A stretch of 64,000 nt of DNA from Verrucomicrobiota bacterium (GTDB lineage: Bacteria; Verrucomicrobiota; Kiritimatiellia; RFP12; UBA1067). Below, piece by piece: positions 52,296 to 57,450 of the stretch. The stretch is taken from the NCBI GenBank assembly GCA_050874585.1, contig JBNMKZ010000008.1, forward strand, positions 344-64,343. The letters are read 5' to 3'. The translations under genes were made by a program, and so were the position numbers. The notes under the pieces were generated by a model. It was not told where the DNA came from. It was given only the letters and a program-made list of their open reading frames with translations, and made no database searches. Positions within the stretch are counted from its first letter, which is position 1. Every line of letters starts with the position of its first letter.

Positions 52296-52780
52296 ATTAT
52301 ACCACAAAACCGCCTGCTCGGGGGCTTGCGCGGCGGCTCGCCCGACCCGGATGCGGCGACGATCTCGCGACGCCTTTCGCGCTTAGACAAGCAGCTTCGC
52401 TGAGCCTGCCCTGCCTCGGCGGTTATCACTGGCTTCGGACGGAGACCTCTCCTACGGCTGCGAGTCGCACCGCACCTCTCGTGCGACCGCCGCGCGCACC
52501 CCCTCGCCCGAGAAGAAGGACAGGCCGACCACAGGCCGGGACGCGGCAGATGGTTTTGCCGCGCCTGCCGTTCGGCAGGCCATCGAAACTGCCGCGACTG
52601 GGCCTACACAACGCCTGCGCGGTGGGGCTTCTCTCCGCCCTTCTGCGCTCCGCCGCTCCCAAGCGGGGTTCCCCGTTTTGCCGCGCCTGCCGCGCGCACC
52701 CCCTCGCCCGAGAGGAGGAACAAGGCCGACCACAGGCATCCCGCGGCAGTGGGTCTTGCCGCGCCTGCCGTCCGGCAGGC
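52296..52780. repeat. Dispersed GC-rich repeat, copy 2, with internal 200-bp-period duplication
   Basis: Matches 11167-11316; ccgcgcgcacccctcgcccgaga-like block at ~52490 and ~52690; aggccgaccacaggc twice. Confidence 0.9.
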
Positions 52781-52904
52781 GCATCCGCCCACTCGCCCCT
52801 AATCGAACGATTCGTGCGTTAAACGCAAAATTTCGACGAGCGAACGGCTTCGCGGCGGATGCTCATGGGCAAGGCCCCGACGCGGCAAGGGCAACCGCCG
52901 CGCC

Positions 52905-52986
52905 TCCCGTGCCCATCGCCCGGAGACTTACTGGGCAGTAAGTCCAAAGTTACTGGGCAGTAAGTTTTCTTCCGATGGGCACGGGA
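52905..52986. repeat. Four 14-bp units at 22-23-bp period
   Basis: IR tcccgtgcccatcg (52905) / cgatgggcacggga (52973) enclosing ttactgggcagtaa at 52928 and 52950. Confidence 0.85.
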
Positions 52987-53165
52987 AATTGCCGCGATGC
53001 GTACGCGGCGCACTTCTCCTGCGCACGACAGGAAATTCCGATAAGCATCCGAGGGAATGCGCCTACCCACGAGCCGAACCGGCCCTCCCCATCGGACTGG
53101 AAACTGACGGGCAGGAACAGTCGGTGCGCGGCGGATTGCGCTCCCAAACCGCCGCGTTGCGAAAC

Positions 53166-53762
53166 CTATTCCTCCGTGCCGTCCGTCAGGCGGTAGCCTT
53201 CGCCGCGGACGCTCTCAATGGTGAGCCCCCTGCCCAGTTTCTTGCGCAGGTTGGCAATCGTCTGGTCGACGGTCCGCGTCGTTCCGTAGTAGTCGAATCC
53301 CCAGGCCTCGTTCATCAGCGTCTCCCGCGAGACGACCGCGCCCGGTTCCGCCGTCAAAAGCCCCAAAATCTTCAGTTCACGCGGCAAAAGCCGAACCGAT
53401 GTCCCATCCGCCTGAATCACGGCCATCCGCGCAACATCAACCTGCACCGGTCCAATGGACCATATCTCCCCACCCGTTTCAAGGACGGAAAGTCCGCCGT
53501 CACCATCCTTGACCTCCACACGATACTTCGCCGACTGGAGCAGGTTCACCAGCCGCGAACGGGCCGCCCCGTCCTTGCCGACGACGACGACCTTTGGAAA
53601 CCTCAATAAACGCACGACACCGAGAATCGCCACAAGGGCAACTCCCGATGTCGCGCAATAGATGCAGCAGCACGTCAGGCAGGTGCAGGGGAAGCTACTG
53701 CACAACCATGAATCGGTCGTGCAGCAGTGCTGAGCCAACGCCAGAAGTGCCGCGAGCATCAC
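53166..53762 (-). CDS. Membrane-anchored OmpR/PhoB-type winged-helix protein with Cys-rich N-terminus
   Basis: LLPRELKIL..VSRETLMNEAWG..TRTVDQTIANLRKKL..ESVRGEGY; N-terminal 9 Cys then a hydrophobic helix. Confidence 0.8.
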   Translation of the reverse strand: MMLAALLALAQHCCTTDSWLCSSFPCTCLTCCCIYCATSGVALVAILGVVRLLRFPKVVVVGKDGAARSRLVNLLQSAKYRVEVKDGDGGLSVLETGGEIWSIGPVQVDVARMAVIQADGTSVRLLPRELKILGLLTAEPGAVVSRETLMNEAWGFDYYGTTRTVDQTIANLRKKLGRGLTIESVRGEGYRLTDGTEE

Positions 53763-53765
53763 CTG

Positions 53766-53948
53766 TTACTTACCACATGCGCAGTTGGTGGTGCAGGTGC
53801 AGGTCGCCTGACCGCATCCGCATTCACACGCCTGACCCGGCGTGCAGTTCTTGCAGCACGCCTTCTTCGGCGCGACACACGAACAACAACCGGCGAGAAC
53901 CGCCACCACTCCGGCGACAAGCGCCGCGACAATTGCACTCTTCATCAT
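53766..53948 (-). CDS. Small Cys-rich (metallothionein-like) lipoprotein
   Basis: AAGGAGG RBS; lipobox LAG-C; 13 Cys in 40 mature residues; TATACT box at 53988-53993. Confidence 0.75.
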   Translation of the reverse strand: MMKSAIVAALVAGVVAVLAGCCSCVAPKKACCKNCTPGQACECGCGQATCTCTTNCACGK

Positions 53949-54037
53949 TTTCAGCCTCCTTTGGCCTTAATCGTTTAACTGGCGCATAGTATAGCGAAAC
54001 CGCGTCCGCGAAGTGTCAGACGAATGTAAAACTTTGC

Positions 54038-55084
54038 TCAGACGATAATGCCTCCGCAAAGGACGGCATCGTCCTCCGCCCCATAGAAGACGGCACTCTG
54101 CCCAGTTGCGATGCCCATGATGCCCTCGGACAGCGAACAGTGCGCACCACGGAGAACGGCCGGGACGAGCCGCCCGGCACTGCGCACCTTGACGCGGCAT
54201 GGAATTGCCTCCTGCGTCGGTTCCGCCGCGCCCCAGTTCATCTCCGCGACATCAAGCGAAGTGCGGACGGCCTCGTCGGCCCGCCCCACGACGACGCGGT
54301 TTCGACATGCGTCCACGTCTATGACATAATAAGGTTCGCCCGCCCCACCGATGCCAAGGCCCTTGCGCTGTCCGATCGTGTAGTGCCAGAACCCAAGATG
54401 ATGGCCGAGGACGCGTCCGTCCGTCGTCACGATGTCGCCCGGACGATCCGCCGCGCCAATCAGCTCGTTCACGTCACCCGCATAGAAGTCCTGCGAGTCC
54501 GGCTTATCCGCCGCATTCAGCCCATGGGCACGAGCAATCGACCGAACCTCGGCCTTCGTCAGTTCACCCAACGGAAAGACCTGCCGCGCCAGCTGCTCCT
54601 GCGAAAGGCGATAGAGAAAATAGCTCTGGTCCTTCGCCTCATCCCGTGCACGGAGAATCGCCCACCGTTCGCCGCGCCGCTCGACACGCGCATAGTGCCC
54701 CGTGGCGAACTTGTCGAACGAAAGCCCCGCCTCAGCGGCCAAACGCGGCAGAAGACCGAACTTCATCAGCGCATTGCACCGGACACAGGGATTCGGGGTT
54801 CTGCCCGAGAGGTAGGTCTCGCGAAAATACGAGACGATGGCCCGATCGTACTGCGCGGCACAGTCGAAGACCTGGTAGTCAATGCCAATGGCCTTTGCAA
54901 AGGCCGCCGCACGCTCGATGTCCTCCTTCTCTCCAGCCCCGAAACAGGCATCACGCGGGCCGCCGCGATACTGCCCGCGCCACAATTTCATCGTAATGCC
55001 GATAACATCGTGGCCCTGCTCCTTCAGGAGTAGGGCCGCGACGCTTGAATCGACACCGCCGCTCAGTCCGACTGCGACTTTCAC
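54038..55084 (-). CDS. mnmA: tRNA 2-thiouridylase
   Basis: SGGVDS, TPNPCVRCN, ATGHYA, KDQSYFL, YTIGQRKGL. Confidence 0.96.
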   Translation of the reverse strand: MKVAVGLSGGVDSSVAALLLKEQGHDVIGITMKLWRGQYRGGPRDACFGAGEKEDIERAAAFAKAIGIDYQVFDCAAQYDRAIVSYFRETYLSGRTPNPCVRCNALMKFGLLPRLAAEAGLSFDKFATGHYARVERRGERWAILRARDEAKDQSYFLYRLSQEQLARQVFPLGELTKAEVRSIARAHGLNAADKPDSQDFYAGDVNELIGAADRPGDIVTTDGRVLGHHLGFWHYTIGQRKGLGIGGAGEPYYVIDVDACRNRVVVGRADEAVRTSLDVAEMNWGAAEPTQEAIPCRVKVRSAGRLVPAVLRGAHCSLSEGIMGIATGQSAVFYGAEDDAVLCGGIIV

Positions 55085-55101: not shown

Positions 55102-55986
55102 TCAGAACTGGTACTGGACCGAGAAGACCGCACCCGAACCGACACCCAGCTTCTTCGTGTTGCCGTTGCGGTAGAAGTGATCCTTGTTGCCCGTCTCGGC
55201 AAATGCCGCGACCAGCGTCAGGTTCTTCGTCACGAACCAGGCCACGTGCGCATCGTAGTAGTCGTGGTTGCGGATGTCGTCGCCGACGTTCACGCCCTGC
55301 TTGTACTCAAGACCGATGGCAATGTTCTCGGCAGGGAGGATGTCGATGTTGCCGAAACCGGCCACGCCATACTTGTTGTGACCGACCACGCCATTCACAA
55401 CCTCGTCCGACACGAGAAGACCAGCCGAGAGAAGGACGGGAACCGGCGTCTGGGTGATCAGCTTCGAGGCCACGATGTAGCCGTCCACGCCATTGTCGCG
55501 CAGGCCGAGAGCCTTGACCGTATCCGAGTCCGTGTACTTCCAGACACCGCCGATGGCGATTGCCGGAATCCAGGCCGTATCAAAGGCGTTCTCGTCGAGG
55601 ATGCGCAGCTTTGCGCCGATGTTGTGGGTGTTAATCGAGCCGTCGCCATAGCGATGAGCATCGACAAAGCCGTAGCCGTAGGAAAGCTCAAGGCGCTGCG
55701 CAACGGTCAGCGCGGCGGAAGCCGCCCACCAGTTGATGCCCGCATCACCGAGATTGACGTACCATCCGCCAACCTGCGGCTTCGAGACGATTTCATTCAG
55801 GTTGCTCGTGCTCGATCCCTCCCACGGCAATCCGGCCGTGTAGGCCAACGGGTTGAAGGCGATACCGCCCGTACCCTGCAGGTTGTTGAGCGGCACGCCC
55901 GCCTGCGCCGCGACCGCACCCAGCGTCGCAGCGGAAATGAGAAGCGTCCGAACCAGTGAGAATCCGTTTTTCTTGTTGATGTTCAT
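55102..55986 (-). CDS. Outer-membrane beta-barrel protein (DUF3034-like)
   Basis: Signal peptide; NLQGTGG, GLEYKQ, AHVAWF; terminal VQYQF beta-signal. Confidence 0.65.
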   Translation of the reverse strand: MNINKKNGFSLVRTLLISAATLGAVAAQAGVPLNNLQGTGGIAFNPLAYTAGLPWEGSSTSNLNEIVSKPQVGGWYVNLGDAGINWWAASAALTVAQRLELSYGYGFVDAHRYGDGSINTHNIGAKLRILDENAFDTAWIPAIAIGGVWKYTDSDTVKALGLRDNGVDGYIVASKLITQTPVPVLLSAGLLVSDEVVNGVVGHNKYGVAGFGNIDILPAENIAIGLEYKQGVNVGDDIRNHDYYDAHVAWFVTKNLTLVAAFAETGNKDHFYRNGNTKKLGVGSGAVFSVQYQF

Positions 55987-56101: not shown

Positions 56102-57388
56102 TTAGATGAGTGCGAGCGCCTGATCGAGGTCCGCGATAATGTCGTCGATGTGCTCGATGCCAATCGACAGACGGATCAGTTCGGGCGCAAGGCCCGCCGC
56201 ACGCTGCTGTTCCTCGGTGAGCTGGGAGTGCGTCGAGGAGGCCGGGTGAACCGACAGCGACCGCGCATCACCCACGTTCGCGAGCTGCGTGAAGAGATTG
56301 AGGCCGTCCACGACCTTGATGCCCTCCTGCACGCCACCCTTCACGCCAAAGACGACCATGCCGCCCTGACCGTTCGGGAGATACTTCTTCGCGAGGTCGT
56401 ACGAGGGGTCGCCCTCCAGGCCCGGATAGCGAACCCACGCCACCTTCGGGTGGTTCTTGAGGAACTTGGCCACCGCCAGCGCGTTGGACGAGTGCCGCGC
56501 AATTCGGAGCGGCAGGGACTCCACGCCCTGGAGGAAGATCCAGTTCGCATCCGGCGACAGCGTCGGCCCCTGGTTGCGAAGGCCGACCGTGCGCAGGCGG
56601 GTAATGAAGGCGAGAGGACCCGCCAGCTTGGACCAGACCGCACCATGGTAGCCCCGGTCAGGCTCGTTGTAGAGCGAGAACTTCGGATCCGACCAGTCGA
56701 ACTTGCCCGCGTCAATCACGACGCCGCCGATGCCCGCACCGTGGCCGCCAATCCACTTCGAGAGCGAGTGGATGACGACATCCGCGCCGAATTCAATCGG
56801 GTGCTCAAGGATCGGGGTCGAGAATGTCGCGTCCACGACCAGCGGGAGGTTGTGCTTCTTCGCAAGCTTCGAGTAGGCCTCGATATCCGCAACGTCAAGT
56901 CCGGGGTTGCCGATCGTCTCGACGAAGATGAGGCGGGTCTTCTCGTTGATGGCCGCCTCGGCCGCCGCGATGTCGTTCACCTTGACGAACTTCGCATGGA
57001 TGTTGTTCGACTGCGGAAGGATCACGTCAAACTGCGTGTAGGTTCCGCCGTAGAGGTTCGAGGCCGCGACGAACTCCTCGCCCGAGGGGACGATGTTCGT
57101 AATCGTGAAGTAGATTGCCGCCGTACCCGAGCTCAGCGTGATAGCCGCCGCGCCACCCTCAAGGGCCGCCAGGCGCTTCTCGAGCACGTCCTCGGTCGGG
57201 TTCATCAGACGGGCGTAGATGTTCGCCGCCTTCCGCAGGGCAAAGCGATCCGCACCATCCTGTGCATTCTTGAAGTTGTAGGCCGTCGTACGGTAGACGG
57301 GCACCGCCGTCGAATCCGTCGCAGGGTCACCATTCCATCCCGCGTGAACCGCGAGCGTCTCTGCATGCTGCTTTACTTCAGTACTCAT
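56102..57388 (-). CDS. metY: O-acetylhomoserine aminocarboxypropyltransferase
   Basis: IYARLMNPT, HSLSKWIGGHG, LANVGDARSL..HPASSTH. Confidence 0.93.
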   Translation of the reverse strand: MSTEVKQHAETLAVHAGWNGDPATDSTAVPVYRTTAYNFKNAQDGADRFALRKAANIYARLMNPTEDVLEKRLAALEGGAAAITLSSGTAAIYFTITNIVPSGEEFVAASNLYGGTYTQFDVILPQSNNIHAKFVKVNDIAAAEAAINEKTRLIFVETIGNPGLDVADIEAYSKLAKKHNLPLVVDATFSTPILEHPIEFGADVVIHSLSKWIGGHGAGIGGVVIDAGKFDWSDPKFSLYNEPDRGYHGAVWSKLAGPLAFITRLRTVGLRNQGPTLSPDANWIFLQGVESLPLRIARHSSNALAVAKFLKNHPKVAWVRYPGLEGDPSYDLAKKYLPNGQGGMVVFGVKGGVQEGIKVVDGLNLFTQLANVGDARSLSVHPASSTHSQLTEEQQRAAGLAPELIRLSIGIEHIDDIIADLDQALALI

Positions 57389-57450
57389 GTGGATTCCTCC
57401 TTCTTCTTTCGTCAATTCTCTATCTTATACCGTGTTCGTTCACCGACCGA

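Follow-up and report, generated by a model that had tools for sequence, protein, structure and literature searches.

Background

Bacterial metallothioneins are rare and cytosolic according to PMC7558416, which also describes metallothioneins operationally as proteins of low mass and high cysteine content, with CC, CxC and CxxC motifs and with aromatic residues absent or rare. This paper concerns a short gene whose product has that composition. It lies in a 64,000-nucleotide stretch of contig JBNMKZ010000008.1 (the whole stretch is referred to below as the window) from a Verrucomicrobiota bacterium, the genome of which is designated G000. The gene encodes a cysteine-rich lipoprotein and is followed directly by a gene for a predicted membrane-anchored transcriptional regulator, itself bearing a cluster of cysteines. 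Judged from their sequences, the two genes and their promoter are best read as a self-regulating module in which thiolates buffer soft metals in the envelope, a reading to which we give a little less than an even chance.

Of the described metallothioneins, SmtA/BmtA and MymT resemble the lipoprotein in being small and very rich in cysteine; they contain CxC and CC motifs, and aromatic residues are scarce or absent. The smtA gene, moreover, adjoins that of its own dedicated regulator, smtB. The resemblance does not extend to fold or regulator type. SmtA has a histidine-containing zinc-finger fold, whereas the lipoprotein has no histidine and no detectable similarity to it, and the smtA regulator is of the ArsR type, whereas the partner of the lipoprotein is membrane-anchored and of the OmpR type. 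Location differs as well. The sequence-only reading that drew attention to this gene had stated that the characterised bacterial metallothioneins are cytoplasmic, which agrees with the cytosolic location given in PMC7558416; the lipoprotein, in contrast, has a signal for signal peptidase II (SPII) and a predicted lipid anchor. Full-text literature searches found no exported, periplasmic or lipobox-bearing bacterial metallothionein, and no metallothionein in Kiritimatiellota.

Periplasmic Cu/Ag binders encoded beside envelope-sensing OmpR-family systems are known (SilE/PcoE with SilRS/PcoRS, and CusF). These come nearest in logic to the present locus, since in them a metal sponge of the periplasm, small and for the most part unstructured, is controlled by an OmpR-family regulator that is encoded beside it and senses the envelope. 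However, these binders are soluble, use methionine and histidine ligands and are served by a full kinase and response regulator, whereas the module described here has cysteine-only putative ligands, a predicted lipid anchor and a sensor fused to the DNA-binding domain. To our knowledge, the known periplasmic metal sponges use methionine and histidine. For the regulator, the closest described proteins are ToxR and CadC, in which an N-terminal winged helix-turn-helix (wHTH) is joined through one inner-membrane helix to a folded periplasmic C-terminal domain, and in which cysteines on the outer side take part in sensing. The present regulator likewise appears to be an OmpR-type winged helix tethered by a single helix, with its putative sensing cysteines outside, but the topology is the reverse: a cysteine cluster of about 27 residues and the helix are N-terminal, the wHTH is C-terminal, and what looks like a receiver remnant lies between them.

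Two further proteins share part of the proposed role or layout. Csp1, which is exported by a twin-arginine translocation (Tat)-dependent route, is a folded four-helix bundle tetramer, whereas the lipoprotein is a 40-residue lipopeptide without a confident fold. As described in PMC7558416, Csp1 is a cysteine-thiolate Cu(I) store outside the cytoplasm, and in this it is like the role proposed here for the lipoprotein. OmcA is a small cysteine-rich lipoprotein of a bacterium of the Planctomycetes-Verrucomicrobia-Chlamydiae (PVC) group (PMC2811131). It differs in being constitutive, structural and disulfide-linked, with OmcB as its partner, whereas the lipoprotein of the window is patchily distributed and apparently regulated, and no disulfide-forming enzymes were detected in its host genome.

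The lipoprotein gene

The sequence-only reading had described an open reading frame (ORF) with a lipobox, 13 cysteines in 40 residues without aromatics, a strong ribosome-binding site and a -10 box of its own, and each of these features was found again on analysis, the coordinates being exact (Table 1). The predicted protein begins with MMK, followed by 17 hydrophobic residues and a canonical lipobox, ie there is a positively charged n-region, a hydrophobic h-region and a lipobox ([LVI][ASTVI][GAS]C) within about 35 residues, and the sequence passes a PROSITE-like rule for lipoproteins. The 13 cysteines, counted by eye from the translation, make up 32.5% of the 40-residue mature part. They form CC pairs at 21-22 and 31-32, CxC at 22-24, 41-43, 43-45, 50-52 and 56-58, and CxxC at 32-35; with two CC, five CxC and one CxxC in 40 residues, the composition is that of a metallothionein in the operational sense. 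The mature part is free of F, W, Y, H, M, L, I, D and R, and contains four lysines and one glutamate. The ribosome-binding site, or an equivalent GAAAGGA, precedes the gene in all of the orthologous lipoprotein loci displayed.

The frame was compared with that of an orthologue in another genome, G028, which is 78% identical. The proportion of synonymous differences (pS) was 0.498 and that of nonsynonymous differences (pN) 0.146, and the other five frames either had pN at least equal to pS or contained stops. By this comparison, purifying selection at the locus is limited to the annotated frame. A crude genome-wide screen of the 2.47-Mb genome G000 for ORFs with a Shine-Dalgarno sequence and a lipobox gave 103 candidates, among which the lipoprotein had the highest cysteine fraction (0.325); the runner-up (0.167) was a spurious-looking tail of 12 residues. 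Because selection is specific to the frame and the cysteine fraction is an outlier, the ORF is not taken to be a by-product of a genome with 59% G+C. AlphaFold2 (AF2) gave no confident fold for the lipoprotein (mean predicted local distance difference test, pLDDT, 54.8), a result that is uninformative on metal binding. Export through the Sec/SPII route followed by lipid anchoring is well supported by the sequence features taken together.

Distribution and conservation of the family

The family is very small. Three near-identical lipoprotein entries were returned when 5.8 billion proteins were searched by word index, and an exhaustive search with a hidden Markov model (HMM) gave 12 matches at E <= 1e-3 among 1.84 billion cluster representatives. 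Nine of the 12 were retrieved and comprised eight true small relatives and P0133, a fusion or deletion product; the long proteins P0131 and P0132 were left out of this inspection. P0003 is a truncated near-identical copy of the lipoprotein that the word-indexed search had also returned. The family size comes to about 9 relatives among the 1.84 billion representatives. Within one GTDB family of gut Kiritimatiellota the short lipoprotein was found in 12 of 221 genomes, divided between the genera g1 (eight genomes, G000 included), g19 (three) and g182 (one). A thirteenth match among the 221, in G106, is the long variant described below.

Alignment of ten members (47-85% identity) gave seven invariant cysteine columns (C32, C35, C41, C43, C45, C50 and C52) and three that are nearly so (C21, C24 and C58), as would be expected of a real protein family; apart from the cysteines, P37, G38, Q47 and K60 are invariant. 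The core motif is CC-x(2,3)-C-[TKV]-P-G-x-x-C-x-C-x-C-x-Q-x-x-C-x-C. An (A/V/S/T)GC lipobox is retained in all listed relatives with the exception of that in G221, where VVCAC fits the relaxed rule only. The metagenomic relative P0130 has the lipoprotein module twice.

Pfam, NCBIfam and PDB sequence searches returned nothing for the short lipoprotein, metallothionein models included, and hmmscan against Pfam-A at E <= 10 matched no metallothionein family to any of eight short or seven long members. All clusters obtained from the ESM Atlas were unnamed and scored below 0.9. None of 18 loci from weak genome-search matches contained a cysteine-rich ORF with a lipobox; from a second set of such matches 12 of 20 loci were inspected, L030, L033, L035, L036 and L038 being left out. 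Because it has no similarity to SmtA/BmtA or to Pfam metallothionein families, the lipoprotein is placed outside the known metallothionein families: it is a metallothionein by composition and, as far as sequence comparison goes, belongs to no known family of them.

Some unusual proteins were met in these searches. P0133 is a metagenomic protein of 97 residues, the first 35 of which are those of the short lipoprotein and the rest, in frame, the winged helix from the C-terminus of the regulator; it is due either to a natural deletion that spans parts of both genes or to an error of assembly. Two others come from the same bacterial family as the window's genome. One (L088, G034:C142:24666-24869) is an exported cysteine-rich protein with a signal of the signal peptidase I type (AFA-QE) followed by repeated CxCKAGAPCICG units, and the other (L089, G523:C61:4074-4307) has a lipobox, a Cys/Lys-rich stretch and then a long repeat tail of the PAPKA type.

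The envelope of the host

The host genome has the enzymes for lipoprotein maturation, ie two copies of Lgt (PF01790; 187 and 80 bits) and LspA, which is signal peptidase II (PF01252; 120 bits). DsbA, DsbB and VKOR were not found in G000, a draft genome that is 91% complete, and the same searches were positive in eight, six and three control genomes, respectively. A reductant channel of the DsbD_TM/CcdA type was present (93 bits). From this gene content the envelope of G000 appears to be reducing. As a DsbD-type channel was found and no DsbA, DsbB or VKOR, exported thiols are more likely to be reduced than to be held in structural disulfides.

The partner regulator

If it is read from its GTG codon, the regulator gene begins 3 nucleotides past the lipoprotein stop; the ATG start would give 6 nucleotides. 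The C-terminal part of the protein matches Trans_reg_C (PF00486) with an E value of 2.5e-21, and Pfam gave no Response_reg match, ie no receiver domain. Of the characters of the OmpR/PhoB family, the regulator has the winged helix and lacks the receiver with its phospho-acceptor aspartate. The acidic-pocket positions are occupied by G-K, and there is a beta-alpha-beta stub at residues 56-85 in the AF2 model which, on that model, is a remnant of the receiver. The wHTH is 48% identical to that of the response regulator of the long cassette described below.

The first 52 residues contain nine cysteines and are nearly free of charge. They are under selection as coding sequence, with pN/pS of 0.36-0.62 as against 0.20-0.32 for the remainder of the protein. 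In 12 regulator homologues, with identities down to 49%, the invariant positions of this region are C12, C13, C20, F23, P24, C25, C27, C30 and C32, which gives a cluster of seven cysteines with one phenylalanine and one proline. The predicted membrane helix is uncharged up to R50 and is followed by the R/K-rich segment RLLRFPK. The order of the domains is cysteine cluster, helix (residues 28-52) and wHTH (119-191), and the positive-inside rule would place the N-terminus outside and the wHTH inside. The AF2 model has a helix at residues 2-13, a loop containing the cysteines, the helix of 25 residues at 28-52, the beta-alpha-beta stub and the winged helix, the last with pLDDT values of 83-91. 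A complex predicted between residues 1-60 of the regulator and the mature lipoprotein scored 0.03, which carries no weight either way.

A full-length regulator was found in nine of the 221 family genomes, with one fragment in addition (G116), and in all nine it lies directly downstream of the short lipoprotein gene. In g19 and g182 the regulator start overlaps the lipoprotein stop (ATGA or TAATG); in g1 the two are separated by 3-15 nucleotides. In an even sample of 401 genomes from the whole class, only G000 and G221 had the full-length regulator. The coupling holds in nine of the 12 lipoprotein genomes. In the remaining three (G036, G061 and G140) the lipoprotein gene occurs without the regulator and behind other promoters, and the stand-alone gene of G036 has its own ribosome-binding site and a hairpin after the gene. 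On these counts the dependence is one-sided: the regulator needs the lipoprotein and the reverse is not so. Since copies free of the regulator exist in these three genomes, the lipoprotein should have a role of its own and not merely that of a co-sensor.

The codons for the membrane helix of the regulator include a 20-pair hairpin and a T-rich stretch (53612..53656, minus strand) that resemble a terminator. The hairpin looks compensatory within genus g1 (G000 compared with G028), support across genera being lacking. It was rejected as a conserved RNA hairpin on the result from RNAalifold over eight loci, which gave a covariation term of +0.86 and many broken pairs; an Rfam match to mir-305 at the same place is due to chance (24 bits, the gathering score being 66).

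Putative promoter and operator

Winged helices of the OmpR/PhoB type bind tandem repeats spaced one helical turn apart. A direct repeat with 11 bp from start to start begins 7 nucleotides after the mnmA stop, ahead of the lipoprotein gene, and by analogy with this mode of binding it is read as the probable operator of the regulator. About 90 nucleotides 5' of the lipoprotein gene are conserved despite differences in the genes further upstream, which are mnmA in G000 and G115, HipA in G028 and YoeB/RelB in G118. The repeat was present in all eight regulator-bearing loci examined, from three genera (G115 was left out), and was missing, as was the -10 element, from both of the regulator-less loci examined. 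The composite motif occurs once in the G000 genome. The hexamer TATACT is invariant in four g1 loci, and its place is taken in g19 and g182 by GATAAT, CATACT or GATACT with a TGn extension. At whichever sequence, the -10 element is always 19 nucleotides from TGACAC.

A sister cassette with a longer lipoprotein

A longer lipoprotein of about 80 residues, with at least 20 cysteines and one histidine, has a lipobox FTGC or FAGC and the same GCC-x-C start as the short form. Of 319 genomes of the order, 16 have it, 15 of them as a complete gene and one as a gene cut by a contig end. All 16 genomes belong to the family that has the short form, and none of the 98 genomes from 11 other families had it. 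In all five loci examined the gene is followed by one for a membrane protein of 158-166 residues and then by one for a full OmpR-type response regulator with a receiver and a winged helix. The membrane protein has HisKA and an outer loop with C-x10-CxCGC and a histidine; an ATPase domain was not detected by Pfam. The promoter of the long cassette bears the same repeat as that of the short one (TTGACATTCGTATGACA in G076 and G106; TTGACAT-N4-ATGACA).

Two of these cassettes, L076:7-1897 (G014, genus g1) and L079:6-1896 (G588, genus g19), have 96.7% DNA identity over 1.9 kb, with the similarity ending a short way 5' of the promoter. The high identity across genera, and the place at which it ends, suggest that the whole long cassette was recently transferred horizontally. 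Comparison of the short module (53166-54040) and of the long cassette with a plasmid collection by blastn gave only generic response-regulator similarity. Short and long cassettes were never found in one genome, an observation that carries no weight because chance predicts less than one overlap. At a single locus (L060:4074-6585, G106) two adjacent genes of the GCS2 type (glutamate-cysteine ligase family 2) lie divergent from the long cassette, and a link to the synthesis of low-molecular-weight thiols is possible.

Table 1. Features of the lipoprotein module, the sister cassettes and the host envelope. Numbers without a contig or locus prefix are positions in the window.
Feature	Position	Strand	Details
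Cysteine-rich lipoprotein gene	53766..53948	-	60 aa + stop; ORF, selection, family conservation
Signal peptide, codons 1-20	53889..53948	-	Within the lipoprotein gene
Lipobox, codons 18-21	53886..53897	-	L18-A19-G20-C21
Mature peptide, C21-K60	53769..53888	-	40 residues
Ribosome-binding site, AAAGGAGG	53955..53962	-	6 nt 5' of the lipoprotein ATG
-10-like hexamer, TATACT	53988..53993	-	19 nt downstream of TGACAC
Putative operator, direct repeat	54013..54029	-	TTACAT (54029..54024) + TGACAC (54018..54013); 11 bp start to start
Cys-cluster wHTH regulator, predicted membrane-anchored	53166..53759	-	197 aa from ATG 53759; alternative GTG 53762
Regulator residues 12-35, Cys cluster CC-x6-C-x2-FPC-x-C-x2-C-x-C	53655..53726	-	12-sequence alignment
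Regulator residues 28-52, predicted single membrane helix	53604..53678	-	AF2/DSSP and sequence
Regulator winged helix (Trans_reg_C)	53187..53405	-	Residues 120-192 of the 198-aa reading; AF2
Long cassette	L083:1494-2911 (G076); L060:6789-8200 (G106)		Also L076, L079, L084
Two Lgt paralogues and DsbD/CcdA-type protein	G000 C47:11003-11755, C41:21526-22215, C46:10135-10713

Interpretation

The analysis shows that the gene is real, that it has a signal and a lipobox, that its cysteines are conserved, that it is coupled to and co-occurs with the regulator gene, and that the repeat is conserved. For the envelope thiolate buffer that we favour, lipidation, topology, reduced state, metal binding, ligand and sign of regulation are what we infer from the features above. 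C21 would be lipidated after Sec/SPII export and would tether a 39-residue, unstructured peptide with 12 thiols to the periplasm-facing membrane. The thiols would stay reduced in the envelope of the host and would bind soft metals as thiolate clusters, Cu(I) first and then Zn(II), Cd(II), Ag(I) or Hg(II), so that the lipoprotein would act as a lipid-anchored periplasmic metallothionein. The regulator would be a one-component protein derived from an OmpR-type response regulator, with a stub for a receiver and with the N-terminal cysteine cluster and membrane helix instead. Its cluster would sense the ligand of the lipoprotein on the outer side of the inner membrane, and sensing would favour binding of the winged helix to the 11-bp-spaced T[TG]ACA[CT]/TGACAC repeats before the promoter. 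By setting the transcription of its own operon, the regulator would keep buffer and sensor in fixed proportion.

Soft metals, and Cu(I) before the others, are favoured because the cysteine motifs are arranged as in metal-thiolate clusters and because the SilE/PcoE type of pairing provides a precedent. The sequence-only reading had proposed an exported, lipid-anchored metal or sulfur buffer. Export and the lipid anchor are upheld by the signal, the lipobox, Lgt and LspA, and the buffer is an interpretation placed on them. It is strengthened by the membrane regulator with its cysteine cluster, by the C-x10-CxCGC sensor of the sister cassette, which is an independent parallel, and by an envelope with a reducing and no detected oxidising pathway. 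The coupled regulator, the more unusual half of the module, had escaped the sequence-only reading. An accessory stress or resistance trait is in keeping with the patchy occurrence (12 of 221 genomes), with the toxin-antitoxin genes nearby and with the 96.7% identity of two long cassettes.

Several results weigh against a metal buffer of this kind. At E <= 10 the lipoprotein had no similarity to metallothionein, HMA, YHS or other metal-binding families. Genes for metal efflux or uptake are not among the conserved neighbours of the lipoprotein gene, the flanks of which vary and include mnmA, HipA, YoeB/RelB, proA and O-acetylhomoserine sulfhydrylase. A generic sigma-70 scan called no promoter at the operon. 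The N-terminal part of the regulator was modelled at low confidence (pLDDT below 50, and below 55 for the helix at 28-52), so that its topology is a prediction, and the absence of the Dsb enzymes rests on a draft genome that is 91% complete. Lastly, all-cysteine chemistry would suit the sensing of oxidants, sulfide or electrophiles equally well.

This last point leads to the nearest competitor, a thiol redox or sulfur module, in which the lipoprotein would supply sacrificial or carrier thiols to deal with oxidants, with polysulfide or persulfide, or with electrophiles that reach the envelope of a strict anaerobe, and the cluster of the regulator would be a redox switch and not a metal site. 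Cysteine-only chemistry and a cysteine-bearing membrane sensor fit such a module as well as they fit a metal buffer, and a DsbD-type reductant channel could re-reduce the thiols. Sulfur genes are also found nearby, with mnmA adjacent and an O-acetylhomoserine sulfhydrylase 2 kb away in G000, a sulfhydrylase directly downstream in G140 and the two GCS2 genes beside the G106 cassette. These neighbours are not conserved, however, and the module has no thioredoxin-fold or rhodanese partner. Dense CxC and CC spacing with glycine and lysine, and without aromatics, is typical of metal-thiolate clusters and not of catalytic redox pairs, and it is on these grounds that the redox module is considered unlikely, if still a serious contender. 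Somewhat lower again is the probability that we give to a signalling accessory, ie a lipoprotein that presents a ligand to the cysteine cluster of the regulator or inhibits it, as with NlpE/Cpx and ToxS/ToxR. The two genes are tightly coupled, the regulator was never seen without the lipoprotein, and the cysteine-rich segments of both proteins would come together on the outer side of the inner membrane. A search of G000 gave no LolA match, as could be the case if the lipoprotein stayed in that membrane. If this were its only function, the lipoprotein would be expected to decay in the absence of the regulator, yet it persists behind other promoters in three of the 12 genomes.

A structural envelope protein, cross-linked through disulfides like chlamydial OmcA, seems very unlikely. 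The layout is shared, with a lipobox followed by a short cysteine-rich tail, and OmcA too comes from the PVC group. Against this, Chlam_OMP3 (PF03503) had no match to the lipoprotein at E <= 1 or to the locus, the best match in the genome (E 0.44) being on another contig. The lack of DsbA, DsbB and VKOR matches in G000, an occurrence too patchy for a core component of the envelope, and the wiring of the lipoprotein to a sensor-regulator also speak against a structural role. For the partner OmcB (PF03504), the search gave a match neither in G000 nor in any control genome. Least probable, and in our view very unlikely, is that the gene encodes the precursor of a ribosomally synthesised and post-translationally modified peptide (RiPP) or bacteriocin, or that it has no functional protein product, being either a spurious ORF or a leader that responds to cysteine supply on behalf of the downstream regulator. 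A small cysteine-rich product encoded immediately upstream of a regulator would suit either idea, but its N-terminus is a canonical SPII signal and not a leader, and selection acts on P37, G38, Q47 and K60 as well as on the cysteines. Nor was there a conserved maturase or transporter gene nearby: when all ORFs of at least 90 residues in eight loci were searched with Pfam, no radical-SAM, cyclase or ABC-export genes were among the neighbours. The lipoprotein gene also survives alone in G036, with its own ribosome-binding site and hairpin.

The thiolate buffer can be extended to a wider proposal, which we put forward tentatively and regard as rather doubtful. Gut Kiritimatiellota would have mobile, self-contained cassettes for envelope metal homeostasis, of a hitherto undescribed kind, each a lipid-anchored periplasmic metallothionein with a thiolate sensor of its own, and one version would contain a new class of transcription factor. 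In this class a response regulator would have lost its receiver and gained a membrane helix and an N-terminal cysteine cluster, extracytoplasmic or intramembrane, and metal outside the cytoplasm would be read by a DNA-binding protein directly, without phosphotransfer. The one-component version would have evolved from the sister cassette, which has a HisKA-only sensor, a response regulator and the same operator. If the thiolate buffer is correct, a cysteine-only, lipid-anchored metallothionein would show how strict anaerobes with a reducing envelope buffer Cu(I)-like metals at the point of arrival, and through the coupled regulator an extracytoplasmic chemical signal would reach DNA by a new and compact route. 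Sensor, promoter and effector occupy less than 900 bp and form a testable unit.

Flanking DNA

Upstream of mnmA in the window, on the minus strand, are genes for a DUF3034 protein (55102-55986), which has a signal peptide and is porin-like, and for O-acetylhomoserine sulfhydrylase (56102-57415). The sulfhydrylase family is also represented in G140, where the short lipoprotein gene lies directly upstream of such a gene. On the other side, the gap of about 900 bp between the regulator gene and serA contains G+C-rich direct and inverted repeats (52480-52990), to which no Rfam family was matched. They include a 39-nucleotide unit present four times and a 37-nucleotide palindrome at 52905-52986, and look like intergenic elements of the repetitive extragenic palindromic (REP) type.

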